Positions 1 to 53,082 of a stretch of 64,000 bases of DNA are shown here, piece by piece. Position 1 is the stretch's first letter, and each line of letters starts with the position of its first letter. Source of the stretch: Patescibacteria group bacterium (lineage in GTDB: Bacteria; Patescibacteriota; Minisyncoccia; Minisyncoccales; JAHCRE01); assembly GCA_020148055.1 (NCBI GenBank), contig JAHCRF010000001.1, positions 5,378 through 69,377 of the forward strand. Direction: 5' to 3'. The notes beneath the pieces were generated by a model, which was given only the letters and a program-made list of their open reading frames with translations, was not told the origin of the DNA and searched no databases. The position numbers were made by a program, and so were the translations under genes.

Positions 1-34
1 AACACCAGAAGACAGACACCAGAAGGCAGCAGCT

Positions 35-469
35 ATGGAGTTCTTGGCTGAGAAAAGAAAACTTACTGACACTGAAAGGCAATATCTTTCTGTTGCCAAG
101 GCTTACGGAGCTGATATGAAGAAAATTTTACAGGCAAGACCAGACTGGGCTCCTTCAACAATAGATCCAAAAACTGGAAGACCAGCAACCATCAGAGGAG
201 TGATGGAAAAAATGGAACCTAGAGAATTTAGAAGAAAAGTTCAAGCAGAAACTCTGAAAAATTTACAATCTTTATACGCTGCTGATTCTCGACAAATAAG
301 GGAAATAGCACTAAGAGGAACTCGAGCTCAAAAAGATGCTCTTCGGGATGTTGTTAGTAGAAGAGGTACTGAGATAGCAGATGAAATTACTCATTTAATC
401 AGAACAGGAAGAAGAAGAGAAGCCAATGCTTTACATGAAAAATTACAACATATAGAATCGATAGTCTAA
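35..469 (+). CDS. hypothetical protein (144 aa) in a locally higher-GC segment
   Basis: Intact ORF with no recognisable motif. Nucleotide composition at 1-1000 is visibly less AT-rich than the rest of the window. Confidence 0.4.
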   Translation: MEFLAEKRKLTDTERQYLSVAKAYGADMKKILQARPDWAPSTIDPKTGRPATIRGVMEKMEPREFRRKVQAETLKNLQSLYAADSRQIREIALRGTRAQKDALRDVVSRRGTEIADEITHLIRTGRRREANALHEKLQHIESIV

Positions 470-494
470 ATACTAAATAATTATTAAAATAAAA

Positions 495-950
495 ATGAAA
501 TCTCAATCGAATCAAAATCAGGAAATAGTCTTCAAAAAAGATCCTTCAAAAATCATCTCTGAACTAATGGAAAAATATGGTTTAAGTGAGACAAAAGAAA
601 ATTTCTTGGAAAAAATAAGAAAGGGAGAAACTACCACCAGAAGGAAAATAGCCGAAATTATAAGAGGGGTTATTGATGGAAAAATCTCAACCGAAGATTT
701 GGTTACTACCTTCCAGCAGCACTTAAATGTTTCAAAAGAAACAGCAGAAAAATTAGCTGAAGACATCAAAAGAGAAATTCCGATTTCTGTTAAGAGAGTT
801 TTAAAAGAAGAAATATCTCCTTCTCCTAAAAGAGAAGTTGCTTTACCTAAAAAACCAATAGTCGAACGAACAGAAACGAAGACTCCGACTCCTCCTAAAA
901 AACCACTTTCTCCTTCAAAAAAAGATATCTATCGAGAACCAATCAAATAG
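495..950 (+). CDS. hypothetical protein with Lys/Pro-rich C-terminus (151 aa)
   Basis: Intact ORF. The C-terminal PKK/SPSPK low-complexity tail is followed by a hairpin terminator. Confidence 0.4.
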   Translation: MKSQSNQNQEIVFKKDPSKIISELMEKYGLSETKENFLEKIRKGETTTRRKIAEIIRGVIDGKISTEDLVTTFQQHLNVSKETAEKLAEDIKREIPISVKRVLKEEISPSPKREVALPKKPIVERTETKTPTPPKKPLSPSKKDIYREPIK

Positions 951-964
951 AAATAAAAAAAGAA

Positions 965-1002
965 GGGTTAAAACTTAATTTTAATTTTTAACCCCTTTTT
1001 TG
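965..1002. terminator. bidirectional rho-independent terminator
   Basis: Perfect 9-bp stem GGGTTAAAA/TTTTAACCC (965-973 and 986-994) followed by a T-run. It sits between convergent genes. Confidence 0.5.
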
Positions 1003-2145
1003 GATATTTTCAATAATTTTTTTCGAGTCTTCGATTAGTTCTTCACCGCTCATTTCCCTTGACCCCTTCCTTTTTTCTTCTGAGGGCTTCTTTTGTGTCG
1101 GGAGCTTTTTTTCTCTCATCGGCATCCTTTTCCAAGCAGCGATAAGATTTAGTAAGCTTCTCTCCAAGCCTTCAGCTCCTTCTACTCTAATATCAAGGAA
1201 ACTTCGACCGTCAATTGCCATCCTCCTCTGAATCAGATCTTTACTTAATTCTCTGAATTCTTTATTTAACTTTGTAGACCTTTTAATCGTTTCTTGAATA
1301 TCTTTCACTGATTTACCAGTTGCTTTAGCCATCATCTGAATAACTGAACCTATTGTTTCTTCTGCTCTCTGCTCGGCCTCGTAAGGTGCTGCTTCTGCCT
1401 CCAACCTTTCTTTATCTACTCTTGGTAAAGCTTTTTCCAATTCTTTAGGAAGCTTTATTTCCTTGACAATTAACCTTAGATCTTCTTCTCTGAAGCCCGC
1501 CTTTCGCAAAGTGCCATCCTCATCTTTAAAGATCCCTTCTGCTTCCTCTCTCAATTTTGATATATTTTCAGTGGCCTGTTTCCAGGTCATTTTCCCAAAA
1601 GCCACTCTAAGAGCTCCAACCACTGCCTCCTCAGTCCAATCCATTAGTTCTTTATCTTTAATGGGGACATGAGATTTCAAGATCTTGATAAGCCCTGTTT
1701 TTGTCCTAGGAAATCGTAAATAAGCTACCGAATCAACTTTAAGGACCTGAGTCCCATATTGTGTTTTTCCTCGGTATTTCTTTGCCTTTGAAATAATTGT
1801 TCTCTCAGGATACGTCAAGTTATACCACTTTGTAGGGTATATTTTTAAGTAGCATCCTGGCAAGAGCGGTACAAAGTAATAACCGCTCTTGCAAAATCCT
1901 ACTGGTTTTCCAAAGACCACTTTTATTGCTATCTCTGCCGGTCCAACGATTTTTATTGAACAAAGGAACCAAGTTGTCACAATTAGAATAGCTATCCCCG
2001 CAACAGTTATTGCAATAGAGAGGAGCTTTAAAAAAGCAGCCACTGAAAGAGCGATTATCAGTGTCGCTATCATCTTTATCAGCGTCCCTCTACTCCACCG
2101 TCTTTTCGCTTTTTCTTCTCTCTCAATTTTCTTTTTCTCTGCCAT
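988..2145 (-). CDS. SPFH/band-7 (stomatin/prohibitin-like) membrane protein
   Basis: N-terminal TM helices, then the SPFH-type start IVGPAEIAIKVVFGKP and a coiled-coil C-terminal half. 385 aa. Confidence 0.6.
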   Translation of the reverse strand: MAEKKKIEREEKAKRRWSRGTLIKMIATLIIALSVAAFLKLLSIAITVAGIAILIVTTWFLCSIKIVGPAEIAIKVVFGKPVGFCKSGYYFVPLLPGCYLKIYPTKWYNLTYPERTIISKAKKYRGKTQYGTQVLKVDSVAYLRFPRTKTGLIKILKSHVPIKDKELMDWTEEAVVGALRVAFGKMTWKQATENISKLREEAEGIFKDEDGTLRKAGFREEDLRLIVKEIKLPKELEKALPRVDKERLEAEAAPYEAEQRAEETIGSVIQMMAKATGKSVKDIQETIKRSTKLNKEFRELSKDLIQRRMAIDGRSFLDIRVEGAEGLERSLLNLIAAWKRMPMREKKLPTQKKPSEEKRKGSREMSGEELIEDSKKIIENIQKRG

Positions 2146-2370
2146 TTCTTTTTACCTTCATACATATTTAGTTTTTAAGGTTTCGATGTTTCTATTATAT
2201 TATATTAAAATATTTTTGTCAAGGGCTACCCTCACCTTACTACTCATTTCTTTTTTATGCTATAATTAATAAATTGAGTTTTTGAAAAGACTTCTACCTA
2301 AAATTATAACAAGATGGTAGAATATATTTAGAAAATCAAAAAATTAACTACACTTTAAGTTATTTATCAT

Positions 2371-2790
2371 ATGGAATTTACTGTTCCCCAATTCATTGAG
2401 GAGGAACCAAAAATAGTCGGGCCCCTCACTTTTAAACAGTTTATTTTCGTTGCCGTAGCTGGAGCTGCTTGTTTTTTTCTTTATTTTTTTATTGGCGAAA
2501 AAAATTTCGCTCTTTTTTTACTAATTACCATAATCTTAATGGGAGGATCCCTGGCTCTTTGCTTTTTGAAAATTAAAGGTTATAGCTTGCCCATGATCAT
2601 AAAAAATTTTTTCACCTATTCAATCTCTGGTAAAGTTTTCCTCTGGAAAAGGAAAATTGTGCCCCCTAAATTTAAAAAGGTTGAAAAATTTGAAAAAGCC
2701 GAGGTCGAAGAAGAAGCTACATTGAAAATGGCTAAAAAAAGTCATTTACAAAGATTATCAACCCAGGTGGAAACCAAAACAATAAAATAA
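2371..2790 (+). CDS. small two-TM membrane protein, candidate VirB3/PrgI-like T4SS component
   Basis: 139 aa with two adjacent hydrophobic helices, encoded directly upstream of the VirB4-like ATPase as in Gram-positive prgI-prgJ arrangements. The assignment is by context and topology only. Confidence 0.35.
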   Translation: MEFTVPQFIEEEPKIVGPLTFKQFIFVAVAGAACFFLYFFIGEKNFALFLLITIILMGGSLALCFLKIKGYSLPMIIKNFFTYSISGKVFLWKRKIVPPKFKKVEKFEKAEVEEEATLKMAKKSHLQRLSTQVETKTIK

Positions 2791-2796
2791 AAACCT

Positions 2797-3444
2797 ATGC
2801 CAAGGGCACCTACTCAACAATTTTTAGAAATTAAGCAAATAAGAGAAGGGGTGATTGTTCTGAGAGATAAAACCTTAAGAGGAATTTTGATGCTTTCTTC
2901 TTTAAATTTCGCCTTAAAAGCTGAGGAGGAGCAAACTGCTATTTTATATCAATTTCAGGAGTTTTTGAATTCTTTAGATTTTTCTTGCCAACTTCTTGTC
3001 CAAACCCGGAGATTAAATATTACCGGTTACTTAGATAAATTGAAGGATCTCGAAGAAAAACAGGAAAATGAACTCCTGAAAATTCAGACCAAAGGCTATC
3101 GTGAATTTGTGGCTGGGATGATAAAAGGAGGAACAATAATGACGAAAAGTTTTTTTGTTATTATTCCTTTTTATCCTTCTCCTTTAGAAATCCAAGAATT
3201 TGGCGGCAAAAAAAAGCTTCCCGGAGTACCAAAAACTCCAACTTTAACTGAAGAATCTTTTCAAAGATATAAAAGCCAACTCTGGCAGAGAATGGAATTT
3301 GTTGCCTTGGGATTAAGAAGGTGTGGTCTCCAGGCCATTCCTCTAATTACTCCTGAACTAATTGAGCTTTTCTGGAAATTCTATCATCCAAAAGAAGCAG
3401 AATTTGGTTATTACCCTGAAATTCCCCCAGAATTAGCCCAGTAG
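2797..3444 (+). CDS. VirB4/TrbE-family N-terminal domain, encoded as a separate ORF (split VirB4)
   Basis: The motif IKQIREGVIVLRDKTLRGILMLSSLNFALKAEEEQTAILYQFQEFLNSLDFSCQLLVQ matches the conserved N-terminus of Gram-positive VirB4 homologues. The ORF ends with TAG then TAA, 20 nt before the ATPase ORF. Confidence 0.55.
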   Translation: MPRAPTQQFLEIKQIREGVIVLRDKTLRGILMLSSLNFALKAEEEQTAILYQFQEFLNSLDFSCQLLVQTRRLNITGYLDKLKDLEEKQENELLKIQTKGYREFVAGMIKGGTIMTKSFFVIIPFYPSPLEIQEFGGKKKLPGVPKTPTLTEESFQRYKSQLWQRMEFVALGLRRCGLQAIPLITPELIELFWKFYHPKEAEFGYYPEIPPELAQ

Positions 3445-3466
3445 TAAGCTTACTCTTCTATTAAAT

Positions 3467-5275
3467 TTGCCAAAAAATATGAAAATTCCATTTTTAAAAA
3501 GAAAAAAAGAAATAGAAATTCCCAAGAAAATATTTGAAGCAGAAATCCTCAAAGTAACTGATATTATTGCCCCTTCTTCAATTGAAATTTCTCAGAATTA
3601 TCTAAAATTGGGAGAGAAATTTGCCAGAAGTTATTTTATTTTTTCTTATCCAAGATATTTAAGTGCTGCCTGGCTTTCTCCGGTTATAAATTTAGATATT
3701 CCTCTAGATATTTCCTTTTTTATCCACCCAATTGAAACTGGAACGGTTTTGAAACAATTAGTAAAAAGGGTGACTGAAGTTCAATCAGAAATTATGGAAA
3801 GAGAAGAAAAAGGTCTTGTTCGAGACCCAGTTTTAGAAACTGCTTTCCGGGATTTAGAAGAATTAAGAGACAAGCTTCAGACCGCTCGAGAAAAGATGTT
3901 TAAATTTGGCCTTTATCTTACTGTTTATGTTGATAAAGAAGAAGATTTTAGAGCTATTGAAACTACTCTCCGCTCAATCCTTGAAGCCAGACTAATTTAT
4001 ATAAAACCAGCTCTTTTCCAACAACACGAAGGATTTATCTCCAGTTCTCCTTATTGCTTGGATCGGCTCCTAATCCATACCCCAATGAATACTGAGCCCC
4101 TCTCTTCTATCTTTCCTTTTATCTCTTTTGACTTGAGCTCCAACGAAGGGATTTTATATGGGGTAAACCGTCATAATAATTCTCTAATTTTATTCGATAG
4201 ATTCAGTTTAGAGAATGCGAATGAGGTAGTTTTTGCCAAGGCCGGTAGTGGAAAATCATATGCTGTAAAATTGGAAGTTTTACGATCCTTAATGTTAAAT
4301 GTGGACGTGATAGTTATTGATCCCGAGAATGAATATATGTTTTTATCTGATGCCGTTGGTGGTTCTTTCTTTAAAATTTCTCTAACCTCTCCAAATCATA
4401 TTAACCCTTTTGAATTACCTCCCCCCAGAGAAGATGAAAAACCGGAAGATGTTCTAAGATCGAATACTATAAACTTGGTCGGTTTATTAAGGATTATGTT
4501 AGGGGGGTTAACTCCGGAAGAAGATGCTATTATTGACAGAGCCTTAACTGAAACTTATGCCGCCAAAGACATTACCCCTGAATCTGATCCCGCTCTCTGG
4601 AAAGAAAATCTTCCTCTGATGGAAGATTTAGAAACAGTCCTGGAAACTATGGAGGGAACTGAATCATTAGTGAGAAGGTTGCAGAAATTCACCAAAGGAG
4701 CCTACTCCTCGTTTTTCAACCAACCTTCAAATATCTCAATGGAAAACAACATGGTTATCTTCGGAATAAGAGATATGGAAGAAGAGTTAAGACCAATGGC
4801 CCTTTATATAATTTTGAGATATATTTGGAAGACAGTCAGAGCCACTCTTAAAAAAAGAATTTTGATTGTTGATGAGGCTTGGTGGTTAATGCAATCAGAA
4901 GACGGAGCTTCATTCCTCTATGGAGTTTGTAAGCGAGCAAGGAAATACTGGTTGGGGGTAACAACAATTACCCAGGATATCGGAGATTTTATGAAGTCAT
5001 CCTACGGTCAACCAATCATTACCAACTCTTCTTTACAACTTTTATTAAAGCAATCACCAGCCACAATCGACATCGTCAAAAAAACCTTTCTTTTAACTGA
5101 GCAAGAAAAATATATGTTGTTAGAAGCAGCAGTAGGTGAGGGGTTATTTTTCGCCGGGCAAAAACACGTCGCCATAAAAGTAGTTGCCTCTTATGCTGAA
5201 GACCAGATAATTACCACAGCCCCTGAAGAAGTTTTAAAAATAAGAAAAGCAAAAAAAGAGTTAGCTGAAGAATAA
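3467..5275 (+). CDS. VirB4/TrbE-like type IV secretion ATPase, C-terminal ATPase portion
   Basis: Walker A FAKAGSGKSYAV, Walker B ILIVDEAWWLM (the DEAW signature) and the C-terminal TTITQDIGDF motif. 602 aa; with the upstream 215-aa ORF this totals about 817 aa, typical of full-length VirB4. Confidence 0.75.
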   Translation: MPKNMKIPFLKRKKEIEIPKKIFEAEILKVTDIIAPSSIEISQNYLKLGEKFARSYFIFSYPRYLSAAWLSPVINLDIPLDISFFIHPIETGTVLKQLVKRVTEVQSEIMEREEKGLVRDPVLETAFRDLEELRDKLQTAREKMFKFGLYLTVYVDKEEDFRAIETTLRSILEARLIYIKPALFQQHEGFISSSPYCLDRLLIHTPMNTEPLSSIFPFISFDLSSNEGILYGVNRHNNSLILFDRFSLENANEVVFAKAGSGKSYAVKLEVLRSLMLNVDVIVIDPENEYMFLSDAVGGSFFKISLTSPNHINPFELPPPREDEKPEDVLRSNTINLVGLLRIMLGGLTPEEDAIIDRALTETYAAKDITPESDPALWKENLPLMEDLETVLETMEGTESLVRRLQKFTKGAYSSFFNQPSNISMENNMVIFGIRDMEEELRPMALYIILRYIWKTVRATLKKRILIVDEAWWLMQSEDGASFLYGVCKRARKYWLGVTTITQDIGDFMKSSYGQPIITNSSLQLLLKQSPATIDIVKKTFLLTEQEKYMLLEAAVGEGLFFAGQKHVAIKVVASYAEDQIITTAPEEVLKIRKAKKELAEE

Positions 5276-5303
5276 ACTCTGATATCTTTTTAATGAAAAA
5301 ACC

Positions 5304-5336
5304 CTGTTATTAAAACAGGGTTTTAAAGTGTTATTT
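5304..5336. terminator. bidirectional hairpin terminator
   Basis: AAAAAACCCTGTT-ATTAA-AACAGGGTTTT between convergent virB4-like and jag genes. Confidence 0.5.
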
Positions 5337-5360: not shown

Positions 5361-5822
5361 TTAAGGATAGGGTTTAATTATCACTCTTCTTTCTGGTTCT
5401 TGACCAATGCTTTCGGTGGTAACATCTTGACGATCAGCTATTTCCAAATGAATAATCCTTCTTTCATAAGCTGGCATCGGCGATAGAATCTTTTCTCTTT
5501 TTGTCAAAGCGACCTCATCAGCAACTGAATGAGCCGTTTCTTTTAGATATTCAATTTTTCTCTTTTTATAATCATTGATATCCAAATCGATAAAGAAAAT
5601 TTCTTCAATCTTCCTTCTCAAGATTGCCTTCAGAAGACGTTGGATCTCCAAGAGAGTCTGTCCTCCTTCCCCGATCAGAATCTGAGGTTTTTCCATTTTC
5701 AAATTTATAGATAAAGTTTTTTCTTTCTGAAATAAAGGTTTAATTTCAACATCAATTGTCATTTTTTTAAAAAATTCCTCAACAATTTTGTTAACTGTAT
5801 CTAAATTAGATTGAGTAAGCAT
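5361..5822 (-). CDS. jag: Jag/KhpB-like RNA-binding protein (KH + R3H)
   Basis: Contains a KH-like ILIGEGGQTLLEIQ segment and a C-terminal R3H-like region. Conserved position downstream of yidC. Confidence 0.65.
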   Translation of the reverse strand: MLTQSNLDTVNKIVEEFFKKMTIDVEIKPLFQKEKTLSINLKMEKPQILIGEGGQTLLEIQRLLKAILRRKIEEIFFIDLDINDYKKRKIEYLKETAHSVADEVALTKREKILSPMPAYERRIIHLEIADRQDVTTESIGQEPERRVIIKPYP

Positions 5823-5847: not shown

Positions 5848-6588
5848 TTATTTATCTGCGGGTTCTGTCGCCAGAGCAGGCTTCCTAAAAATAAAATATT
5901 GCTGAATAATTGAAAAGGTTGTTGTCACTATCCAATAAAGTCCAATAGCTGAAGGTAATTTTAATAAGATGAAAAAAGTGAAGATAGGAAAAACATAGAG
6001 GGTCTGTTTTTGGAGAATCTTTGAAAATTGGCCTATTCTATCCTCCATTTTAATTTCTTGAACTTTTGGGGTAATCATTTTTGTCTGGATAAATTGAAAA
6101 ATGCCAGCGAGAATTGCTAAAATGAGCGAGGGTTGACCAAGATTCATTATTCCAAGAAAAGTGGGGTTGATTTGTCCGGGCTTAGGAACAAAATAATAAA
6201 GATTAATCATTTCTCCAGGAACCAATCCTTTACGAAATACTTGGTAGAGGGCGATTAAAATCGGGAGTTGAATTAACAAAGGTAGACAACCGGAGAAGGG
6301 ATTAATTTTTTCTTTCTGATAAAGTTCCATCATTGCCCGAGTCTGCTTTTCTTTATTGTCTTTGTATTTTTTCTGAATTTCCCGAATTTTTGGTTGGAGC
6401 TCCTGTAAAACTTTCTGAGATTTGATTGCCTTAATTCCTAAAGGATAAAATAAAATTCTGATTAAAATTGTCAAAAGAATTATTGCTATTCCGAAGTCTT
6501 GACCAGGTAAATATTGATAAAACAAAATCAGAATATTGAATAATGGCTTGTATAAAATTAGATTGAAAAGATTAATAAAAAATTCCAT
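5848..6588 (-). CDS. yidC: membrane protein insertase YidC/Oxa1
   Basis: Multi-TM protein with the C-terminal YidC signature SAIGLYWIVTTTFSIIQQ. Member of the rnpA-yidD-yidC cluster. Confidence 0.85.
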   Translation of the reverse strand: MEFFINLFNLILYKPLFNILILFYQYLPGQDFGIAIILLTILIRILFYPLGIKAIKSQKVLQELQPKIREIQKKYKDNKEKQTRAMMELYQKEKINPFSGCLPLLIQLPILIALYQVFRKGLVPGEMINLYYFVPKPGQINPTFLGIMNLGQPSLILAILAGIFQFIQTKMITPKVQEIKMEDRIGQFSKILQKQTLYVFPIFTFFILLKLPSAIGLYWIVTTTFSIIQQYFIFRKPALATEPADK

Positions 6589-6592
6589 AATT

Positions 6593-6802
6593 TTAAGGTA
6601 AATCTATCCCTCCCTGATGCCAAGGATGGCACCTTAATATTCTTTTCATCCCGAGAAACAAACCCATAAATAAACCATATTTTTTGATTGCCAAATAGGA
6701 ATATTGGGAACAGCTTGGATAAAATCGGCAAGTTCTTCCAAAAGCTTGAGAAATAAATTTTTGATAAAATTTTATTAAATTAAGAATTAAAATCTTTAAC
6801 AT
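6593..6802 (-). CDS. yidD: membrane protein insertion efficiency factor YidD
   Basis: 69 aa with the conserved Cys pattern [10 protein letters not shown]. Positioned between rnpA and yidC. Confidence 0.75.
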
Positions 6803-6803
6803 T

Positions 6804-7142
6804 CTAAATTATTTTTGCCTTACTAAAAAGTTTACTTATTACCTCTTCAATATCCCAAAAATCTTTATTTTCCAAACCCGGCTGAGCAATTAAAATAACA
6901 TCGAATCCTTTTTTAATCTTTTTCAACTTTATCCGGACTAACTCCCTCAATCTTCTTTTAATTTTATTGCGCAAGCTTGCTTTTTTTGAAATTTTTCCCC
7001 CGACAATAAAACCGAAACGATTCTGTTTTAAATTATTTCTAATCATCTTTAAAACTAAAAAATCTTCTTTAAATCCCTTCCCTTTTTTAAAAATCAATTC
7101 AAAATCTTTCTTCTTTTTAAGCCGATTTATTTTTACTAACAT
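6804..7142 (-). CDS. rnpA: RNase P protein component
   Basis: Basic 112-aa protein; motifs [25 protein letters not shown]. Lies downstream of rpmH. Confidence 0.8.
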
Positions 7143-7152
7143 CTTTAAAAAC

Positions 7153-7287
7153 TTAAACGGTTAACCTCCGTCTACCTTTTCTTCTCCGCTTAGATAAAAT
7201 TCTTCTTCCTCCTTTTTTTTTCATTCTTCTTCTAAAACCATGGGTTCTTTCTCTTTTCTTTTTCTTAGGACGATAGGTGATTGACAT
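7153..7287 (-). CDS. rpmH: 50S ribosomal protein L34
   Basis: Hand translation of the minus strand gives [44 protein letters not shown] (44 aa), a clear L34. Below the size cutoff of the supplied ORF track. Confidence 0.85.
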
Positions 7288-9062: not shown

Positions 9063-10193
9063 ATGAAATTAAAAATATTACAAAGTAAATTAAAAAAGGG
9101 ACTTAATATTGTTGAAAGGGTTTCTATAAAATCTTTAACTTTACCGATTCTTAATAATATCTTAATTAAAGCTGAAAAAAATTTTTTAAATCTTTCATCT
9201 ACTGACTTAGAAATAGGAATTAAATGGTGGGGTCTAGCAAAAATTGAAAAAGAGGGAGCAATTGTTATTCCGGCTAAAGTTTTTTCGAATTTTGTCGGAT
9301 TTTTACCTGAAGAACCAATAAATTTAAAAATTGAAAATCAAACTTTAATTATTGAATCAGAAAAATATAGTACCCAAATCAAAGGTTTTAATCCTGAAGA
9401 GTTTCCTATTATTCCACAAATTACCACAGGGGAATCTATTATTATTAATAGTCTCTCCTTTTGTCAGGGTTTAAATCAAGTTGTTCAAATACCTATTCTT
9501 TCTTCAGCTAGACCGGAAATCTCAGGAATTTATTTCTCATTTCAAAAAGATTTGATAAAAATAGTAGCTACTGATAGTTTTCGTTTAGGAGAAAAAAGAC
9601 TTTTTTTAAAAGAAGCCCTTCCTCTCCATCAAGAGTATTCCTTGATCTTACCTCAAAAAGCGGCTAAAGAAATAATCAATATTTTTAGCGAAAAAGAAGG
9701 GAAAATTAAAATTTACTTTTCAACTAATCAGATTTTATTTGAATCCTCTATAAGAGAGACCCCCCACCCTAAAATTCAACTCATCTCCAGATTAATTGAG
9801 GGTGAATATCCAGATTACCAAGCTATTTTTCCTAAAAAATCTGAAACCCAAATTATTCTGAAAAAAAATGAACTTTTAAATCAACTAAGAACAGCTAGCC
9901 TTTTTGCCTCTAAAATGAATGAGGTAAAATTAAAAACGGATATTAAAAAAGGAGAAATTGAAATTTTTAGTCAGAATCCTGATTTAGGAGAATATCATTC
10001 CTTTCTTTCTGGAAAAATAAACGGGAAAGAGGTGGAAGTCTCTTTTAATTATCGATTCTTAATTGATGGTCTTTTAAATATAAAAAGCTCAGAGGTGATT
10101 TTTGAGTTGAATGGAGAAGAAGGGCCATCCGTTTTAAAACCAGTTGCTGATCCAAGTTATGTTTATCTGGTTATGCCTATTAAGCCAAGTTAG
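9063..10193 (+). CDS. dnaN: DNA polymerase III beta sliding clamp
   Basis: 376-aa three-domain clamp immediately downstream of dnaA. Similarity is by length, context and overall pattern. Confidence 0.85.
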   Translation: MKLKILQSKLKKGLNIVERVSIKSLTLPILNNILIKAEKNFLNLSSTDLEIGIKWWGLAKIEKEGAIVIPAKVFSNFVGFLPEEPINLKIENQTLIIESEKYSTQIKGFNPEEFPIIPQITTGESIIINSLSFCQGLNQVVQIPILSSARPEISGIYFSFQKDLIKIVATDSFRLGEKRLFLKEALPLHQEYSLILPQKAAKEIINIFSEKEGKIKIYFSTNQILFESSIRETPHPKIQLISRLIEGEYPDYQAIFPKKSETQIILKKNELLNQLRTASLFASKMNEVKLKTDIKKGEIEIFSQNPDLGEYHSFLSGKINGKEVEVSFNYRFLIDGLLNIKSSEVIFELNGEEGPSVLKPVADPSYVYLVMPIKPS

Positions 10194-20569: not shown

Positions 20570-21718
20570 TTATGGTACTGGACAGTTAATAGTATGCCAA
20601 CTCTGAAAGGGACTACCAGCTGGGGTTAGAAAAACGACAATTGTATTCACAATCAACCAAGCAGCCAGGACAATGACTAGACCAATTACAGTTGCTTTTA
20701 AAAGCTTTTTTCCTCCTCTGATTTTTTCTGGGTCTCCTGTGGCAGTCAAAAGCATTATTCCACTAATTACGAACATTAGAACTGCCAAGGGGAAAATGAT
20801 ATTTACAGTCACATAATCAACAACCCTTTTAAATAAGACAAGAATATGGCAGAGAGTACAAGGAGCGCTCTCATCAAGAGCTGTACCTGGATCATCTACT
20901 AACCTTCCACAAGGGACAAGTCCTCCATAAAGGCATTCCCAAATAATAAGAGCATCAGTATCATTACAATCCCAACATCCTATTATCCCAGGAGGTAAAT
21001 CAGTTGGATCACAGGGACAATCCATAGTCATAAAGCCATCTCCATCTCCATCCCAGGCGGCCATCATTACTGCAGCATAAATATCGTCAGCCATATCGGC
21101 GGGAGTTCCGCCCCAAATAAATTTTTTATCATTAGCCGTAGTACTAACAACTAAATCGTTCATACTATTGCTACAACAACCGCTAGCTCCATCTCCTTCG
21201 AGTGGAAAAACATATACACCATTGGCATCGGCTGCATTAGCTGCGTTAACTATTGAATCATTGTCATCATTACTCGGTGTATCGATAACTCCATCATCGG
21301 TGCACCCATTCCCACAATAGGGCCCCTCATCACTTATTGGCATAATTATTTTGATTGGTGCCGTCCAGGGATAATTCTGAGCTCTATCTTCAACAGCTGG
21401 TCCCCATTGTTCTCTGTCACCATGAGGAGCGCCACACCCAGCATAAGGAAGAACACCTGTTGCACATACTTTAAGCATATCAATGCCATATATTGTATAC
21501 TTTAGAATAACGTCTTTTTTCTCTAAACTATCAACTACATCATCAATAACATTACAAAGAGTAATCCATTCATTATTCATTGAACCGGAAGTATCTACTA
21601 CAAAAACAATTTCAGCATCAATGACACACAATTCTGCATCAGCTGAAAAAATAGGAATAATTCCTATTAAAATAGATATAATTAAGAAATATAAAACAAA
21701 TATTTTTTTATTTCTCAT
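20570..21718 (-). CDS. secreted vWA-like adhesin domain fused to Cys/Asp-rich region and a C-terminal VirB2/TrbC-like pilin hairpin
   Basis: Signal peptide; vWA MIDAS-like IVFVVDTSGSM; D/G/C-rich middle. The C-terminus CTLCHILVLFKRVVDYV ... TATGDPEKIRGGKK ... is homologous to the small pilin-like proteins at 62175-63621 (shared RV.D.V motif and G-D/S-P-E/D-K loop between two TM helices). Confidence 0.5.
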   Translation of the reverse strand: MRNKKIFVLYFLIISILIGIIPIFSADAELCVIDAEIVFVVDTSGSMNNEWITLCNVIDDVVDSLEKKDVILKYTIYGIDMLKVCATGVLPYAGCGAPHGDREQWGPAVEDRAQNYPWTAPIKIIMPISDEGPYCGNGCTDDGVIDTPSNDDNDSIVNAANAADANGVYVFPLEGDGASGCCSNSMNDLVVSTTANDKKFIWGGTPADMADDIYAAVMMAAWDGDGDGFMTMDCPCDPTDLPPGIIGCWDCNDTDALIIWECLYGGLVPCGRLVDDPGTALDESAPCTLCHILVLFKRVVDYVTVNIIFPLAVLMFVISGIMLLTATGDPEKIRGGKKLLKATVIGLVIVLAAWLIVNTIVVFLTPAGSPFQSWHTINCPVP

Positions 21719-34587: not shown

Positions 34588-34659
34588 AGCGGGTGATGGG
34601 AATCGAACCCACGTACGCGGCTTGGAAGGCCACTGCACTGACCACTGTGCTACACCCGC
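34588..34659 (-). tRNA. tRNA-Gly (anticodon UCC)
   Basis: Acceptor GCGGGTG/CACCCGC, anticodon stem GTGGC/GCCGC, loop CUUCCAA, T-loop GGTTCGATTCC. Confidence 0.85.
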
Positions 34660-34674
34660 AAATTTAATTTTTTG

Positions 34675-34745
34675 TCGGGGCACCCAGATTCGAACTGGGA
34701 CTAAATCCTCCCAAAGGACTCGTGCTACCGTTACACCATGCCCCG
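34675..34745 (-). tRNA. tRNA-Pro (anticodon UGG)
   Basis: Acceptor CGGGGCA/TGCCCCG, anticodon stem AGTCC/GGATT, loop UUUGGGA, T-arm CCCAG-TTCGAAT-CTGGG. Confidence 0.85.
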
Positions 34746-34825
34746 TCCTCTTCAACATATCAAGATTTCTCTTCCTAGTCAATTTATTTTGCTTGTTCTT
34801 TTTTAAATGTGCTATAATAAAAGTG

Positions 34826-35767
34826 ATGAAGCTCAAAAAAATTCTTCATCAATTAAATATTCCTGCTCAGTGTCGAAGATACAGAGTTCCCCTTTGGCAG
34901 TGCCCTCAATTTCTCTTTCCAATTATGGGAATAGTTATTATTGGGGCAGCTGTTATCGCTTATCTAATTGGTACTCGTTATATCAAAGACCCGGAAATAA
35001 TTGCCTTAATTGTCCTTATCTCAAGTGGTGTTTTGTTTATTCTCACTTACATTATTACCATTTCTTTTGAAAGATTGGCTGAAGTCAGCCGGATGAAGTC
35101 GGAATTTATTAGCATTGTCTCTCATCAATTACGCTCCCCAATTACTAATTTAAGTTGGGCAATTGATATTTTAATGTCCAGAGGGTTGAGGGGGGCTGAA
35201 AAAAAACAACTGGAATATTTTAAGATTTTAAAAGAAAATAGTGGTCGGATGAAGGAATTAGTCCAGGATTTACTTGATGTCCTGAGAATTGAGGAAGGTA
35301 GTTTATTAATTAGAAAAGAAAAGATTTCTTTAGTAGAAATAGTTAAGAGTTTGATTTTTAAATTCCAGCCTTTTGCCCTGAGTTCAAATGTCGAGATAAA
35401 ATTTGATTTTGATAAAAACCTACCAGAAATCTTTACCGATTCTCATCAGATAAAAGTGGTTATTGAGAATCTTTTAGATAATGCTATCCGTTATATTAAG
35501 AGAAAGGGTGAAGTTAAGATTCGTTTAAGAAAAAAGGAAAACGAGGTCCTTTTCGAAATTAAAGACAATGGGGTTGGTATTCCTGAAGAAGATCAGAAAT
35601 ATATTTTTCAGAAATTCTTCCGTTCAAAAAGTGGAACAAAGCAGCAAGGGAGTGGTCTTGGTCTTTTTATCACCAAATCAATTATTGAGAGATTGGGAGG
35701 AAAAATTTGGTTTGAATCCGAGGAAGGAAGGGGGACAACTTTTTGGTTCACTTTACCAATTAAATAA
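34826..35767 (+). CDS. sensor histidine kinase (two TM, HisKA + HATPase_c)
   Basis: H-box SIVSHQLRSPIT and G-box DNGVGIPEE...GSGLGLFI. The supplied ORF begins inside two minus-strand tRNA genes, so the start is moved to ATG 34826 (MKLKKILHQ). Confidence 0.8.
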   Translation: MKLKKILHQLNIPAQCRRYRVPLWQCPQFLFPIMGIVIIGAAVIAYLIGTRYIKDPEIIALIVLISSGVLFILTYIITISFERLAEVSRMKSEFISIVSHQLRSPITNLSWAIDILMSRGLRGAEKKQLEYFKILKENSGRMKELVQDLLDVLRIEEGSLLIRKEKISLVEIVKSLIFKFQPFALSSNVEIKFDFDKNLPEIFTDSHQIKVVIENLLDNAIRYIKRKGEVKIRLRKKENEVLFEIKDNGVGIPEEDQKYIFQKFFRSKSGTKQQGSGLGLFITKSIIERLGGKIWFESEEGRGTTFWFTLPIK

Positions 35768-35877
35768 ATTGTTCGGAAAGATAATTTTTGGTACCTACTT
35801 TTTCATTTAACCAAGCCGGACATCGTGCCTGCTTAGCTTAGTAGTCTCAAAAATTACTTTCCTGCTTTTACTAATTT

Positions 35878-36252
35878 ATGCCAAAAACTATATTATTTAT
35901 TGAAGATGAGTCGTCTCTTCAAGAAACTTTTAGAGGTATTTTAATAAGGGAAGGCTATGAAATGATTTCAGCTATGGATGGAGAAGAAGGCCTGAAATTA
36001 GCAAAAACTGAAAAACCAGATTTAATCCTCTTAGACCTTATTCTACCAAAAATTGATGGTTTTAAAGTTCTGAAGAGATTAAAAGAGGATCCCGAAACAA
36101 AAAAAACTCCAGTCATTATTTTAACCAATCTTGAAGATGTAGAGAATGTGAATAAAGCTCTTGAATTAGGAGCAACAACTTACTTAGTTAAGGCAAGTTA
36201 TAGCCCGGAAGAAATATTGGAAAAAATTAGAAGAATCTTAGGAGAACGCTAA
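35878..36252 (+). CDS. single-domain response regulator (CheY/PilH-like receiver)
   Basis: REC domain with phospho-acceptor context LILLDLILPKIDG. 124 aa and no output domain. Confidence 0.8.
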   Translation: MPKTILFIEDESSLQETFRGILIREGYEMISAMDGEEGLKLAKTEKPDLILLDLILPKIDGFKVLKRLKEDPETKKTPVIILTNLEDVENVNKALELGATTYLVKASYSPEEILEKIRRILGER

Positions 36253-36272: not shown

Positions 36273-38021
36273 ATGCGTGTTGAACCGGGACAATTAAAAG
36301 CCTTTCTTTTAGACGCTGGTTTGGTTACCAAAGAGAAATTCGAGAAGGCTCTAAAAAAAGCTGAAAAGACCGAACAGAAAGTCGGGGATGTTTTAATTTC
36401 TGAAGGTTTGATTACCCAAGAGGAACTAATTAAACTCGAGGCCTATATTTTAGGAGTTCCTTTTGTGAATTTAGAAAAAGAAATCATTTCTCCGGAAGTT
36501 TTAAAGCTTATTCCTGAACCAATTGCCAGATCCCATAATATTGTTGCCTTTAGAAAAAAGGGAAAAACTTTAGAAGTAGCCATGTTGGATCCAGAAGATT
36601 TAAGGATGATTGAGTTTATTAAAAAGACTGCTAACCTTAAAATCCTACCAAGGCTAACTACTCCAGGCTCTATTAAAAATGTTTTGCGTCAATACCAAAA
36701 AACTTTGGAGGCTGAATTTGGCGAAATTATAAGAAAGGAAGCTGGGGAAATAATTCCAATAAAGGAAGAAGAAATAGTGGAGGAAAAAGAGGAACTAAAA
36801 AAAGTAGCCAAGGAATTACCAGTAATTCGGATTGTCGATACCTTGTTAAAACATGCCATTTTACAGAGAGCTTCTGATATTCATATAGAACCAACAGAAA
36901 AAGAAGTAATGATTAGATATCGAATTGATGGAATTTTACATGATGCCATGGTCCTTCCAAAACAAGCTAGCTCAGGAATTGTAGCCAGGATTAAAGTTCT
37001 CTCTGATTTGAAGCTAGATGAACATCGACTCCCCCAAGATGGTCGATTTAAAATTGAAACTGAGGAATATCGCTATTCTCTTCGAGTTTCCATTCTCCCA
37101 GTTTTTGGTGGGGAGAAAATCGTTATGCGCCTTTTACCAGAAGAAGCCAAGGTTCTTACTTTAGAAGGCTTAGGACTAAGAGGAGAAGCTTTAGAAAAAA
37201 TTCTAATTAATTTAAGAAAACCAGCGGGAAAGATTTTGATTACTGGTCCCACCGGCTGTGGAAAGACCACAAGCCTGTATGCTATGCTGGAGATTTTAAA
37301 TACTCCGGCAGTCAATATTTCAACTATTGAAGATCCAATTGAATACCGAATACCCAGAATCAATCAGACTCAGGTTAACCCAAAAATCGGCCTCACTTTT
37401 GCTTCTGGTTTAAGAACTTTAGTCAGACAGGATCCAGACATTATCATGGTTGGAGAAATTAGAGATAATGAAACCGCCGGTTTAGCTATCAATGCTGCCC
37501 TGACCGGACATTTAGTTTTGTCAACTTTGCATACTACCAACGCTGCCGGGGCCGTTCCCAGATTGATTGATATGAAAGCTGAACCATTTTTGATTTCCTC
37601 AACTTTAAATTGTATTTTAGCCCAGAGATTGGTCAGAAAATTTTGTAAAGAAAAAGAAAAATATAATCTATCAGAATCAGAAATAAAAAATTTAGAAAGA
37701 TACTGCAATTTGAATAGAATTTTGCAGATTTTAAAAGAGGAAAAAATTGTTAAAAAAAATCAAACCTTCAAAGATATTGAGTTTTTTCGACCGAAGTCCT
37801 CAAAAGAATGTCCAGAGGGCTACAAAGGTCGAATTGGAATTTTTGAAATTTTACCAATTACTGAAACTATAAAAGAGTTAATTGTTAAGCGGGCTACTTC
37901 GGATCAGATTCAGGCTCAGGCACAGAAAGAGGGGATGAGGACGATGATTGAAGACGGTTTCGTTAAAGCAGCCCAAGGAATAACCAGTATTGAGGAGATA
38001 TTACGAGTCATTATAGAATAA
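36273..38021 (+). CDS. pilB: type IV pilus assembly ATPase PilB (GspE family)
   Basis: N-terminal GSPII_E_N-like domains; Walker A GPTGCGKTT and the GspE Asp/His boxes. 582 aa. Confidence 0.85.
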   Translation: MRVEPGQLKAFLLDAGLVTKEKFEKALKKAEKTEQKVGDVLISEGLITQEELIKLEAYILGVPFVNLEKEIISPEVLKLIPEPIARSHNIVAFRKKGKTLEVAMLDPEDLRMIEFIKKTANLKILPRLTTPGSIKNVLRQYQKTLEAEFGEIIRKEAGEIIPIKEEEIVEEKEELKKVAKELPVIRIVDTLLKHAILQRASDIHIEPTEKEVMIRYRIDGILHDAMVLPKQASSGIVARIKVLSDLKLDEHRLPQDGRFKIETEEYRYSLRVSILPVFGGEKIVMRLLPEEAKVLTLEGLGLRGEALEKILINLRKPAGKILITGPTGCGKTTSLYAMLEILNTPAVNISTIEDPIEYRIPRINQTQVNPKIGLTFASGLRTLVRQDPDIIMVGEIRDNETAGLAINAALTGHLVLSTLHTTNAAGAVPRLIDMKAEPFLISSTLNCILAQRLVRKFCKEKEKYNLSESEIKNLERYCNLNRILQILKEEKIVKKNQTFKDIEFFRPKSSKECPEGYKGRIGIFEILPITETIKELIVKRATSDQIQAQAQKEGMRTMIEDGFVKAAQGITSIEEILRVIIE

Positions 38022-38022
38022 A

Positions 38023-39243
38023 ATGCCAAAGTTTTTCTATACTGCTAAATCTTTTAAAGGAGAAATAAAATCAGGAATTTTAGAAGCCAAAGATGAGCAT
38101 CAGTTAGCTAGAACCCTTCGCCAGGAAGGATATATTTTAATTTCAACAAGTTTAGAAAAAGAGATTGGGAAAGGGAAATTTAAGATTTCCCTTCCTTTTT
38201 TTGGAGGAGTATCCTTGACCGAAAAAATGATGTTTACCAGAAATCTTCGGATAATGATTGCTGCCGGTATATCTCTGCCCCGGGCTTTAGAAACTTTAGC
38301 TTCGCAGTCAAAAAGTAAAAAATTCAAGAAGGCTTTATTAGACGTAGCTGATGAGATTACCAAAGGAAGAAGCTTTTCTGATTCTTTAACTAAATATTCT
38401 GATATTTTCTCCGAACTCTTTATTAGCATGATAAAAGTAGGAGAGGAGGCAGGAACTCTAGAAGAGGTTTTAAAAATTTTAACTAATCAGATGGAAAGAG
38501 AACATGAATTAGAATCTAAAGTTAAAGGTGCGATGATTTATCCGGCGGTTATTATTTTTACTATGATCGGTATTGGAGTTTTAATGCTGATTATGGTTGT
38601 TCCAAGATTGGCTGAGACTTTTGAGGAATTGGCAATCGAGCTTCCTCCGACCACTAAGTTGGTAATTTTCCTTGGTAATTTTTTGGCTGAGAAATGGGCT
38701 TTAGCTGTCTTAATAATTCTCGCCCTTTTAATTTTATTTAGGATAATTTTAAAAACAAAGAGAGGAAAAAGAACAACCGATTTTCTAACTTTAAGAATTC
38801 CTATCATCTCCCCCATTATTAGGAAAACTAATTCAGCCTATACTGTTAGGACCTTAGCTTCTCTTATTACCTCAGGAGTGCCAATTGTCCGGGCTTTGGA
38901 AATTGTCTCGGGAGCCCTGGGAAATATTTACTTTCAAGAAGCAATGGCAGACGCCAGCGAGAAAGTTAGAAAGGGTTCTAAACTTTCCGACGCCTTGAGA
39001 TCCCATGAAGGAGTTTATCCTTCATTAGTTATTCAGATGATTGAGGTAGGGGAAGAAACTGGAGAAACTTCGACTATCCTGGCTAAGCTGGCCGATTTTT
39101 TTGAAGAGGAGGTTACCAATGCTACCAAAAATTTAACGGCAGTTATTGAACCAATCTTAATGCTTCTTATCGGAGGGGCTGTAGGATTCTTTGCAATTTC
39201 AATGATTCAGCCAATATACGGGATGTTAGGAGCAGTAAAGTGA
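38023..39243 (+). CDS. pilC: type IV pilus platform protein PilC (GspF family)
   Basis: Two GspF repeats with three TM segments. 406 aa, immediately downstream of pilB. Confidence 0.85.
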   Translation: MPKFFYTAKSFKGEIKSGILEAKDEHQLARTLRQEGYILISTSLEKEIGKGKFKISLPFFGGVSLTEKMMFTRNLRIMIAAGISLPRALETLASQSKSKKFKKALLDVADEITKGRSFSDSLTKYSDIFSELFISMIKVGEEAGTLEEVLKILTNQMEREHELESKVKGAMIYPAVIIFTMIGIGVLMLIMVVPRLAETFEELAIELPPTTKLVIFLGNFLAEKWALAVLIILALLILFRIILKTKRGKRTTDFLTLRIPIISPIIRKTNSAYTVRTLASLITSGVPIVRALEIVSGALGNIYFQEAMADASEKVRKGSKLSDALRSHEGVYPSLVIQMIEVGEETGETSTILAKLADFFEEEVTNATKNLTAVIEPILMLLIGGAVGFFAISMIQPIYGMLGAVK

Positions 39244-40148
39244 ATTCAAAATTCAAAATTCAAAATTCAAAATTGAATGTCGGGGTTACTCTTGTTGAGT
39301 TAGTGGTGATTATTGGGATTTTAGTTATTTTAGCTCTCATATCTGCCCCGGTCTTCCGTTTTTTTCAAAAAGAGTCAGATTTAAATAATAACACTGAGGA
39401 AATTATCAATACCTTAAGATTTGCTCAAAATAGAACTCTGGCTTCTGAAGGAGCTAGTCAATACGGAGTCTATTTTGATAACACTACCTCTCCCCATCAA
39501 TATACCTTATTTAAGGGCACAGATTTTGCTTCTAGAGATAGTTCTTCTGATGAAATTCATAAATTAGCAAAAGCAGTAGAGTTTTATGAAATTAATTTAA
39601 ATGGAGGAAATGAGTTGGTTTTTGATCGAGTAACGGGGAAAACTAGCCAACCTGGTAATGTTTCTTTAAGATTAAAAGTAGATCTTACAAAAACTAAGAC
39701 TATCTACATTGAGAGTTCTGGTCAGGTGGGGCTGACTATCCCGTCAGTCCCTACTGATGGTCAAGTAGAAGATTCCAGGCATGTTCATTCTGATTTAGGA
39801 TGGAGTATTCAAAACTCCACTGCTTTAAAATTTTCTTTTCCCGATATCCCACAAGTAGAAACCATAGATATGGCTGATTATTTTAATACTGGTAAAACAG
39901 AATTTGATTGGGAAGGAACATTTTCTGTAGGCGGGATCGACCAAATATTCCGAGTTCATACCCATGCTCTTGATGCATTTAATACTCTTCTCTGTATTCA
40001 TCGTAATCGAAACGATGGGAAAAATAACCAAGAAGTAATAATTTATATTGTCGACGGGGGAATAGATAAAGATATCGCCCATTATTTAGCCGATGCAGTA
40101 GATACTGTGGAAAAAGGTTTTTATGTTAATACAATGGAAAGACAATAA
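39240..40148 (+). CDS. type IV pilin-like protein (prepilin N-terminus), 302 aa
   Basis: Leader ...KLNVG then VTLVELVVIIGILVILALI, with Glu at +5 after the putative G cleavage site. The start is ambiguous: GTG 39240 or TTG 39273. Confidence 0.65.
   Translation: MNSKFKIQNSKLNVGVTLVELVVIIGILVILALISAPVFRFFQKESDLNNNTEEIINTLRFAQNRTLASEGASQYGVYFDNTTSPHQYTLFKGTDFASRDSSSDEIHKLAKAVEFYEINLNGGNELVFDRVTGKTSQPGNVSLRLKVDLTKTKTIYIESSGQVGLTIPSVPTDGQVEDSRHVHSDLGWSIQNSTALKFSFPDIPQVETIDMADYFNTGKTEFDWEGTFSVGGIDQIFRVHTHALDAFNTLLCIHRNRNDGKNNQEVIIYIVDGGIDKDIAHYLADAVDTVEKGFYVNTMERQ
39244..39271 (+). repeat. heptanucleotide tandem repeat (ATTCAAA)x4 at the pilC stop / pilin start
   Basis: attcaaa x4 read directly from the sequence, followed by the degenerate unit attgaat. 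It overlaps the first codons of the GTG-initiated pilin ORF. Confidence 0.8.
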
Positions 40149-40608
40149 AAAGGGAATATCAGTCATAGAAATTCTAATAGTTATCGCTATTATTGGTATT
40201 GCTTTGACTAGTCTTTTAGGCGTAGCCGCCTTTTCTTTAAAGGTTTCCGTTTCAATAAAAGAGACCACTCAGGCCAATGCTTTAGCCCAGGAGATAATTG
40301 AGGCAGTCAGAAATTTTCGAGATGGAACAACTTGGGATAGTGATGGTCTAGGAACTTTAACCACCAGCCTTGCTTATTATCCTCAAAAAACAGCCGATAC
40401 TCCTCCAAAATGGACCCTAATTCAGGGCGAAGAAACAATTAATGGTTTCACTCGAAAAGTGATTTTTGCAGATGTTATGAGGGATGCCAGTGATAATATT
40501 GTCGGAACTGGTGGAATAAATGACCCCAATACAAAAAAGGTGACCGTAACTGTTTCCTGGAAAGATAAAAAGGTAGAAATAGTAACCTATTTTACTAACT
40601 GGAAATGA
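40123..40608 (+). CDS. type IV pilin-like protein, 161 aa
   Basis: Leader MLIQWKDNKKG then ISVIEILIVIAIIGIAL (class III signal, E+5). Overlaps the preceding gene by 26 nt. Confidence 0.65.
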   Translation: MLIQWKDNKKGISVIEILIVIAIIGIALTSLLGVAAFSLKVSVSIKETTQANALAQEIIEAVRNFRDGTTWDSDGLGTLTTSLAYYPQKTADTPPKWTLIQGEETINGFTRKVIFADVMRDASDNIVGTGGINDPNTKKVTVTVSWKDKKVEIVTYFTNWK

Positions 40609-41126
40609 TGAAGAAACCACTTCAAAGAAGTTTCACTTTAATGGAAATTTTAGTTTATATTGCAGTTCTTTCTATTGTAATTACGGCTATTGTCTCGTTT
40701 GTTCTCTGGTTTATTCATTCCAATACTAAAACTAAGGCAATGCGAGAAACCTTGGATAATGCAAGAAGAGTTATGGAAATAATGACCTATGAGATCAAAG
40801 AGGCAAGAAGCATTTATGCACCAACTACTACTTCTACTCAACTCTCTTTGGAAACAACAAAATATTTGCCAGAAGGAGAAGAGACAAGCTTCATTGATTT
40901 TTATCTTTGTGATTATCGTCTCTGTCTTAAAAAAGAATCCCGAGATTCAATTGCTTTAACTTCAGATAGTGTGGAAATAAATAATCTGGTTTTTACCCGA
41001 ATTGTCTCTGGAGAAGTCCCTTCTATCCAGATTGATTTAACAATTGATTACAAAAACCCAACTAATCGACCAGAATATCAAGCCTCAGTTGGTTTAAAAT
41101 CAACTGTCTCTTTAAGAGAGTATTAA
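40605..41126 (+). CDS. type IV pseudopilin-like protein, 173 aa
   Basis: MMKKPLQRS then FTLMEILVYIAVLSIV hydrophobic N-terminus with E+5. Ser rather than Gly at -1. Confidence 0.55.
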   Translation: MMKKPLQRSFTLMEILVYIAVLSIVITAIVSFVLWFIHSNTKTKAMRETLDNARRVMEIMTYEIKEARSIYAPTTTSTQLSLETTKYLPEGEETSFIDFYLCDYRLCLKKESRDSIALTSDSVEINNLVFTRIVSGEVPSIQIDLTIDYKNPTNRPEYQASVGLKSTVSLREY

Positions 41127-41127
41127 A

Positions 41128-42936: not shown

Positions 42937-42960
42937 AAATTTTAAATTCAAAATTTCAAA

Positions 42961-42990
42961 TGTGGCCTAGGGCCACTTTTTATTTTTATT
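42961..42990 (+). terminator. hairpin terminator after the pilX-like gene
   Basis: GTGGCC-TAG-GGCCAC followed by TTTTTATTTTT. Confidence 0.5.
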
Positions 42991-43014
42991 TTTAATGATA
43001 TAATTAATTAGAAA

Positions 43015-44214: not shown

Positions 44215-44220
44215 AAAATT

Positions 44221-52995: not shown

Positions 52996-53082
52996 TGGTG
53001 CCCAGGGCGGGACTCGAACCCGCAAGGGGTTACCCCCACTACCACCTCAAGGTAGCGAGTTTTCCAATTTCTCCACCTGGGC
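52996..53082 (-). tRNA. tRNA-Leu (anticodon GAG), type II, CCA encoded
   Basis: Acceptor GCCCAGG/CCTGGGC, anticodon stem CTACC/GGTAG, loop UUGAGGU, long variable arm, T-arm CGGG-TTCGAGT-CCCG, then ACCA. Confidence 0.8.

Follow-up and report, generated by a model that had tools for sequence, protein, structure and literature searches.

The window considered here, i.e. the whole analysed stretch of 64,000 nucleotides (assembly GCA_020148055.1, contig JAHCRF010000001.1, positions 5,378 to 69,377; Patescibacteria group bacterium), carries at its left end genes of a type IV secretion system (T4SS) that lie beside dnaA. Three plus-strand open reading frames (ORFs) at 2371-2790, 2797-3444 and 3467-5275, which an earlier sequence-only reading of the window had pointed out, exist as described there and encode a PrgI-family (VirB3-like) protein, a TrsD-like protein of 215 amino acids (aa) and a VirB4 ATPase. 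On the parent contig they close a longer series in the order KsgA, PsbP-like, VirB2-like pilin, VirB6-like, 151-aa protein, SPFH (opposite strand), PrgI/VirB3, TrsD-like and VirB4, and they are followed, as had been stated, by the jag-yidC-rnpA block and then by rpmH, dnaA and dnaN. The coordinates of these and other features are collected in Table 1. The sequence-only reading had taken the region for the stump of an element, conjugative or for DNA uptake, that had integrated beside the origin, with a VirB4 split by in-frame stops; the comparisons reported here bear on both parts of that interpretation.

The two VirB4 chains and their junction

The large ORF can be read as 602 aa from TTG 3467, the first possible start, or as 598 aa from ATG 3479, which is the start position common to relatives (an equivalent ATG, MKIPF...). 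Its translation contains the ATPase motifs that had been noted earlier: Walker A (KAGSGKSY), a DEAW Walker B (LIVDEAWW) and TQD (TITQD). It scores 352.9 bits against the NCBIfam model conju_CD1110 "VirB4-like conjugal transfer ATPase" (cutoff 325) and 81 bits against Pfam P-loop_TraG, matches positions 61-174 of the CagE_TrbE_VirB profile, and finds 4ag5, the solved VirB4 C-terminal domain, with E 7e-40 and TrwK with E 3e-6; the score with VirB4 TIGR00929 (VirB4_CagE) is 108.9 bits, under the cutoff of 643. Orthologues at 58-88% identity all come from Patescibacteria metagenome-assembled genomes. The predicted product of 3479-5275 belongs to the monoderm CD1110 type of VirB4 ATPases.

The small and the large protein occupy successive parts of the same NCBIfam VirB4 models. 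The 215-aa protein takes up positions 2-80 of 752 in conju_CD1110 and 104-209 of 894 in VirB4_plasma, and the large protein covers the remainder of both (positions 166-734 and 280-893), in keeping with the earlier view that the two ORFs, about 817 aa in sum, make up the length of a complete VirB4. A single-chain VirB4 of 797 aa (P0231) is encoded at 544-2937 of locus L085 (GCA_964615945.1, contig CAZTUR010000004.1) in the context PrgI-VirB4(797)-163 aa-Jag-YidC-RnpA-DnaA-DnaN. Residues 1-202 of the 215-aa chain align with residues 1-213 of this fused protein at 40% identity, and residues 23-588 of the large chain with residues 227-791 at 58% identity. As only ~13 linker residues of P0231 fall between the two matched parts, nothing is missing at the junction, where a loss of residues had been considered, and the cut lies in the linker.

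The fold of the small protein points the same way. Its AlphaFold2 (AF2) model finds TrwK/VirB4 chains as all of its 14 best matches in the Protein Data Bank (PDB), with probability 0.82-1.00 and TM-score on the query of 0.40-0.48, and the matches that come after these chains have probability <0.15. At E<=1e-3 there are 5608 homologues of the 215-aa protein in a 90%-clustered database, the best 120 of which are all 182-217 aa long, 66-100% identical and nearly all annotated with PF26593 "TraC-like". Among 1.84 billion 50%-identity representatives 1826 match, and of the best 150 of these, 149 carry this domain without the ATPase and one, P0231, has it fused to the ATPase. PF26593 was seen in precomputed annotations only; a local Pfam scan of the 215-aa ORF returned no match, and a PDB sequence search with it returned nothing meaningful. 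Some TrsD-like representatives (280-443 aa) have C-terminal extensions, and the idea that these are truncated fused VirB4s was rejected as the extensions have no similarity to the VirB4 chain. Judged by their sequences, the 215-aa TrsD-like and 598-aa VirB4 chains are one full-length VirB4, predicted to be made in two pieces.

At the junction, TAG (3442-3444) ends the small ORF and TAA (3445-3447) follows directly, which confirms the tandem stops at 3442-3447. The stops are not in frame with the ATPase, however: the ORF at 2797-3444 is in frame 1 and that at 3467/3479-5275 in frame 2, and the spacer after TAA, given earlier as 20 nt, is 19 nt to TTG 3467 and 31 nt to ATG 3479. The behaviour of this junction among relatives was followed in a scan of GTDB species genomes that yielded 427 loci, the best 80 of which were examined; these are mostly labelled Nealsonbacteria, Paceibacteria or Parcubacteria, titles such as "uncultured Saccharibacteria" being submitters' labels. 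Both genes are included in 78 of the 80, and the contigs of the remaining two end first. In 78/78 a stop codon terminates the small gene after 202-221 codons, and a separate VirB4 (~590-604 aa) then begins at its own start codon (ATG in 76/78), at the position equivalent to window 3479. The details of the junction vary from locus to locus: an ATGA overlap (-4) in 10, a gap of 1-9 nt in 31 and most others <90 nt (over all loci the spacing is mostly <50 nt), with TAA, TGA and TAG all used as stops of the small gene and with relative frames of the small gene and VirB4 of +2 in 30, +1 in 28 and 0 in 19. The ratio of nonsynonymous to synonymous substitution (dN/dS) of the small gene is 0.09-0.18, as measured against six relatives with unsaturated dS.

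A decayed pseudogene, in which a recent nonsense or frameshift mutation had inactivated a full-length VirB4, could explain why the ORFs are adjacent and match successive parts of a full-length VirB4 with two stops and a change of frame between them, and a fused 797-aa relative is known in the same chromosomal context. This explanation is left with next to no probability by a break that recurs at the same protein position in 78/78 relatives, each with its own stop, gap and frame and some with the ATGA overlaps typical of coupled genes, by the low dN/dS of the small ORF, by the thousands of stand-alone homologues and by the same split in Bacillota plasmids. Since the split is conserved in all 78 loci with differing junctions and a low dN/dS, it is not a lesion; it is a conserved two-gene architecture under purifying selection. 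The sequence-only reading had left a choice between a decayed pseudogene and a two-chain VirB4 that would be unusual. The two-chain form is retained and the pseudogene discarded, and the word "unusual" does not suit an arrangement whose N-terminal piece, TrsD, is reported to be the most abundant T4SS component in Patescibacteria (PMC12102498) and which is shared with Bacillota.

As a separate observation, five related loci have VirB4 ORFs of 1117-1263 aa (L007 from 1273, L019 from 1608, L021 from 10341, L041 from 10661 and L045 from 1682), in which ~520-660 aa are inserted within Walker A (GSGK | S/T...VHN | SYAxKLE). The first residue of the insert is Ser (Thr in L021), its last two are His-Asn with a Ser next in line, and LAGLIDADG-like blocks lie inside; its removal restores GSGKSYAxKLE, the same as in the window VirB4. 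By these sequence features the insert in the VirB4 P-loop resembles a large intein that carries a homing endonuclease.

Neighbouring genes and other features of the window

Part of the T4SS lies beyond the left edge of the window and was read from the 87-kb ENA scaffold that carries the 215-aa protein (L001; window coordinate + 7204 = L001 coordinate); the same protein is also on record in a 137-kb NCBI contig of "Patescibacteria group bacterium". The window ORF at 35-469, one of what had been called two unknown ORFs in the first kb, is the tail (last 144 codons) of a 617-aa gene at L001 5820-7673 that starts 1385 nt before the window. The upstream genes are, nearest first, a 321-aa T4SS_pilin gene (VirB2-like, PF18895; 32.7 bits vs cutoff 26.6), a PsbP-like 227-aa gene, KsgA and a LysM-M23 peptidase. 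The 617-aa protein itself has no family match in Pfam or NCBIfam scans. It has ~8-10 hydrophobic segments within residues 1-370; its homologue P0384 scores 26.6 against the Pfam TrbL/VirB6 profile, above the gathering score of 25.9, and its homologues P0370 and P0374 cover nearly the whole of that profile below threshold. The top four PDB matches of its AF2 model (predicted local distance difference test, pLDDT, 76.6) are TrwI/VirB6 of R388, with probability 0.99-1.00, TM-score on the target of 0.48-0.51 and weak E-values of 0.14-0.3. Because this putative VirB6-like gene crosses the start of the window, the reported lack of a VirB6 is probably an artefact of the window edge.

Table 1. Features of the window (coordinates in nucleotides of the 64,000-nucleotide stretch)
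Feature	Position	Strand	Basis
VirB6/TrbL-like 617-aa polytopic membrane protein, 3' end (last 144 codons)	1..469	+	Gene call on parent scaffold, translation
151-aa soluble protein, family unassigned, variable in locus	495..950	+	No family match
SPFH/Band-7 membrane protein, occasional passenger in locus	988..2145	-	Band_7, 44 bits vs cutoff 23.6
PrgI-family (VirB3-like) protein with two transmembrane segments, 139 aa	2371..2790	+	PF12666 PrgI, 34.4 bits vs cutoff 27
TrsD-like protein, predicted VirB4 N-terminal domain as separate 215-aa chain	2797..3444	+	PF26593 "TraC-like", fold, colinearity
Predicted VirB4 ATPase body, 598 aa: remaining N-terminal region and P-loop domain	3479..5275	+	conju_CD1110, P-loop_TraG, 4ag5
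jag/R3H	5361-5822	-	Pfam on called genes
yidC	5848-6588	-	Pfam on called genes
yidD-like	6593-6802	-	Name read from translation
rnpA	6804-7142	-	Pfam on called genes
rpmH	7153-7287	-	Name read from translation
dnaA	7589-8938	+	Pfam on called genes
dnaN	9063-10193	+	Pfam on called genes
382-aa secreted protein, C-terminal T4SS_pilin (VirB2-like) domain	20570..21718	-	PF18895
Tandem trio of small VirB2-like pilin genes	62175-62510, 62590-63036, 63163-63621	+	PF18895 on three consecutive genes

The assignment of the gene upstream of the TrsD-like ORF as VirB3-like with two transmembrane segments is borne out by its PrgI match above threshold, and that of an SPFH protein on the opposite strand by Band_7. 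No family in the Pfam and NCBIfam scans matched the 151-aa protein. A perfect 12/12 sigma-70 consensus (TTGACA, 17 nt, TATAAT) is present at 2222-2194(-), ~50 nt upstream of the SPFH start at 2145, and sits in the divergent intergenic region common to the SPFH and PrgI genes. On the plus strand a promoter scan found no convincing site ahead of PrgI (12 sites vs 12.3 expected). VirB2-like pilin genes elsewhere in the window had also been proposed, and both sets are found. The 382-aa protein has a signal-like N-terminus, a Cys/Asp-rich N-terminal region and two C-terminal transmembrane segments, and the tandem pilin trio lies between a methyltransferase gene and an HSP20 gene, ~57 kb from virB4.

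A search for DnaA boxes (TTATCCACA, up to 1 mismatch) gave 19 matches vs 16 expected with no cluster anywhere in the window, so that "beside the origin" is a statement of gene context only. The cumulative GC skew is lowest near 22 kb (about 21.8-22.0 kb), ~14 kb from dnaA, and gene strand switches at the same place, from minus at 10.5-21.7 kb to plus at 22-45 kb; the replication origin may not be right at dnaA. Elsewhere, a 235-246-aa ORF at 53047-53787(-), between rplS and a NUDIX gene, has a faint LAGLIDADG_3 match only, and at its 3' end it touches or overlaps the predicted genes for tRNA-Leu (52996-53082) and tRNA-Val.

Conserved position and relation to known systems

Wherever the contig is long enough, the 80 loci display a recurrent block: KsgA, (PsbP-like), pilin, VirB6-like, PrgI, TrsD-like, VirB4, (pilin), Jag, YidC, RnpA, DnaA, DnaN. 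PrgI was counted in at least 77 loci, VirB4 in 78, pilin in 55, Jag in 54, VirB6-like in 49 and DnaA in 44, all of them lower bounds as many contigs are short. PrgI is directly upstream of the TrsD-like gene in 77/80, and most of the loci that extend far enough have the Jag-to-DnaN flank after VirB4. The only variable pieces are the SPFH gene (16/80 loci) and the 151-aa ORF (20/80, at the same position). The base composition of the block is that of its surroundings. Positions 1-1000, described earlier as a higher-GC block, have a GC content of 0.343 against a window mean of 0.350, which is the 43rd percentile of 1-kb windows, and the SPFH gene, at 0.396, is mildly high and inside the window range of 0.27-0.46. 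On no called gene from 7 kb upstream to the window end is there an integrase, relaxase or type IV coupling-protein (T4CP) family in the precomputed Pfam annotation; att repeats were not searched for.

An element inserted beside the origin in this lineage and since stripped of most of its genes, which is how the sequence-only reading accounted for the region, would agree with a VirB4 family typical of monoderm conjugative elements and with the absence of VirB6, VirB8 and VirD4 after VirB4 when the window alone is considered. It is highly improbable in view of the pilin and VirB6-like genes immediately upstream and partly outside the window, a gene order and position conserved across 80 species-level genomes, a block GC equal to that of the genome, the lack of integrase, relaxase or coupling-protein families on genes in the window, and a published survey in which the system occurs on chromosomes throughout the phylum (PMC12102498). 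The system may plausibly have come from monoderm conjugative elements by an ancient horizontal transfer, which would be something other than a recent remnant. With a putative VirB6-like gene cut by the window start and a pilin gene just upstream, the locus appears complete and is not a stump. The region, from a Paceibacteria/Nealsonbacteria-like genome, is very probably the right-hand part of an intact chromosomal T4SS beside dnaA of the type known from the ultra-small Patescibacteria, or candidate phyla radiation (CPR), with VirB4 in two pieces by design.

Systems of this kind have been surveyed by Quinonero-Coronel et al. (2025), who describe a monophyletic Patescibacteria VirB4 clade related to the monoderm MPF-FATA class and a repertoire of VirB4, TrsD, PrgI/VirB3, VirB6 and VirB2-like pilins, including arrays of 2-11 genes, with relaxases scarce and with T4SS genes near dnaA, dnaN, rnpA, rpmH and ksgA in Paceibacteria and Microgenomatia (PMC12102498); a 2025 review repeats the same points (PMC12857230). 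The window shares with these systems VirB4, an adjacent TrsD homologue, PrgI/VirB3 and VirB2-like pilins including a tandem array, probably also a VirB6-like protein, likewise has no nearby relaxase or T4CP family, and has the same dnaA, dnaN, rnpA, rpmH and ksgA surroundings. There is no substantive difference; the window adds an SPFH gene and the 151-aa ORF inside the block. As it fits the published description feature by feature, the finding is already known. In that survey TrsD is called a remote homologue of the VirB4 N-terminus, with its function unassigned (PMC12102498); in the present alignment the TrsD-like chain and the N-terminus of a fused relative are exactly colinear.

The same split is found in MPF-FATA monoderm plasmids of the pGO1/pSK41 subclass (TrsC-TrsD-TrsE) and in Bacillota plasmids such as Geobacillus pGspE55-1 and a Pontibacillus plasmid. 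The 215-aa chain is 26-31% identical to Bacillota plasmid proteins, and 54 plasmid records matched, 24 of them typed conjugative; in the Geobacillus and Pontibacillus loci, which were inspected, the order is PrgI-like, TrsD-like and a VirB4 of ~620-636 aa, with the genes overlapping or abutting, and upstream of these the Pontibacillus locus additionally encodes a pilin-like protein and a large membrane protein. The Bacillota loci are plasmid-borne, in part conjugative and have a large M23 peptidase directly after VirB4, whereas the window locus is chromosomal, core and relaxase-free and its LysM-M23 peptidase is located further upstream. L001 1-2985, just before KsgA, holds a 982-aa MmeI/Eco57I-type restriction-modification fusion together with this LysM-LysM-Peptidase_M23 protein (L001 2113-2985). 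By analogy with the M23 peptidase that directly follows VirB4 in the Bacillota plasmid loci, the LysM-M23 protein may be a cell-wall-opening (VirB1-like) partner.

Canonical single-chain VirB4s (TrwK of R388 and A. tumefaciens VirB4) have a P-loop ATPase domain and an N-terminal domain fold in common with the window proteins, which would likewise partner with VirB3 and VirB6. Unlike the canonical protein of ~800 aa, the window form consists of two polypeptides encoded in different frames, falls under the TIGR00929 cutoff and belongs to a monoderm-type system without the VirB7/9/10 outer-membrane core. More likely than not, TrsD is the N-terminal (VirB3/membrane-docking) domain of VirB4, turned into a subunit of its own by gene fission at the interdomain linker. 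Cut and uncut forms both occur at one chromosomal site in Patescibacteria (the window vs L085), and Bacillota plasmids have the same cut.

Proposed mechanism, function and significance

Structural work on R388 and the biology of monoderm T4SSs suggest how the parts might act together. The TrsD-like chain would bind the ATPase chain as well as PrgI/VirB3 and would thereby tether the VirB4 hexamer under the VirB6-like channel, where ATP hydrolysis would power pilin extraction, assembly of a VirB2-like pilus and/or passage of a substrate. According to Wang et al. (2023), as cited in PMC12102498, Southlakia epibionticum requires its homologues of TrsD, PrgI, VirB6 and the pilins for epibiotic growth. 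Because homologues are essential in that setting and no relaxase or T4CP family is found nearby, the most likely role of the system is not conjugation but interaction with the host, by exchange or uptake at the host contact.

An intact machine might instead have DNA transfer or uptake as its job, in a conjugation-like or Ced-like manner, and not host interaction or nutrient exchange. T4SSs are ancestrally conjugative, the VirB4 is weakly similar to the archaeal DNA-import ATPases CedB and CedD (42 and 15 bits, far below cutoffs), and the window has a type IV pilus/competence-type cluster at 36273-45299. Set against these points are the lack of a relaxase or T4CP family in the window by precomputed Pfam annotation, the report of relaxases in only 103 Patescibacteria genomes (PMC12102498, PMC12857230), and the loss of comEC without effect on viability where T4SS genes are essential (PMC12102498, PMC12857230), and on balance a DNA-transfer role appears unlikely. 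The type IV pilus cluster, on the plus strand, encodes a PilB-like ATPase with an MshEN domain, PilC/T2SSF, N_methyl pilins, a PilX_N protein, PilM and PilN, and it is preceded by a two-component pair (histidine kinase and response regulator) at 34622-36252.

Several points weigh against an intact, host-directed T4SS with a two-piece VirB4 as set out above. The NCBIfam TrsD assignment of the 215-aa protein is weak (E 8.7e-4; 19 bits, under the curated cutoff of 200), and its AF2 model is moderate (pLDDT 68.5) with Foldseek E-values of 0.003-0.13. The VirB6 call for the 617-aa protein is suggested by transitive and fold evidence with weak E-values. We infer the association of the two VirB4 chains, and that of the TrsD-like chain with PrgI, by analogy, and the essentiality data, as relayed in PMC12102498, come from Saccharimonadia, a different class.

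For the annotation of CPR genomes, a "VirB4 interrupted by stops" should not lead a reader or a pipeline to call a pseudogene or a dead mobile element, as a two-piece VirB4 is normal for this system, which the only CPR species tested requires for epibiotic growth. To the published description the present comparison makes a modest addition, namely explicit evidence that a TrsD-like protein and a short VirB4 correspond to a fissioned VirB4, together with a fused form that is seldom found and occupies the same locus, and this colinearity gives TrsD a concrete, testable structural role. If the fission interpretation is true, one T4SS subclass would have the two-chain VirB4 as an old and stable architecture, and this arrangement could permit a different stoichiometry or regulation of the docking domain and the motor.

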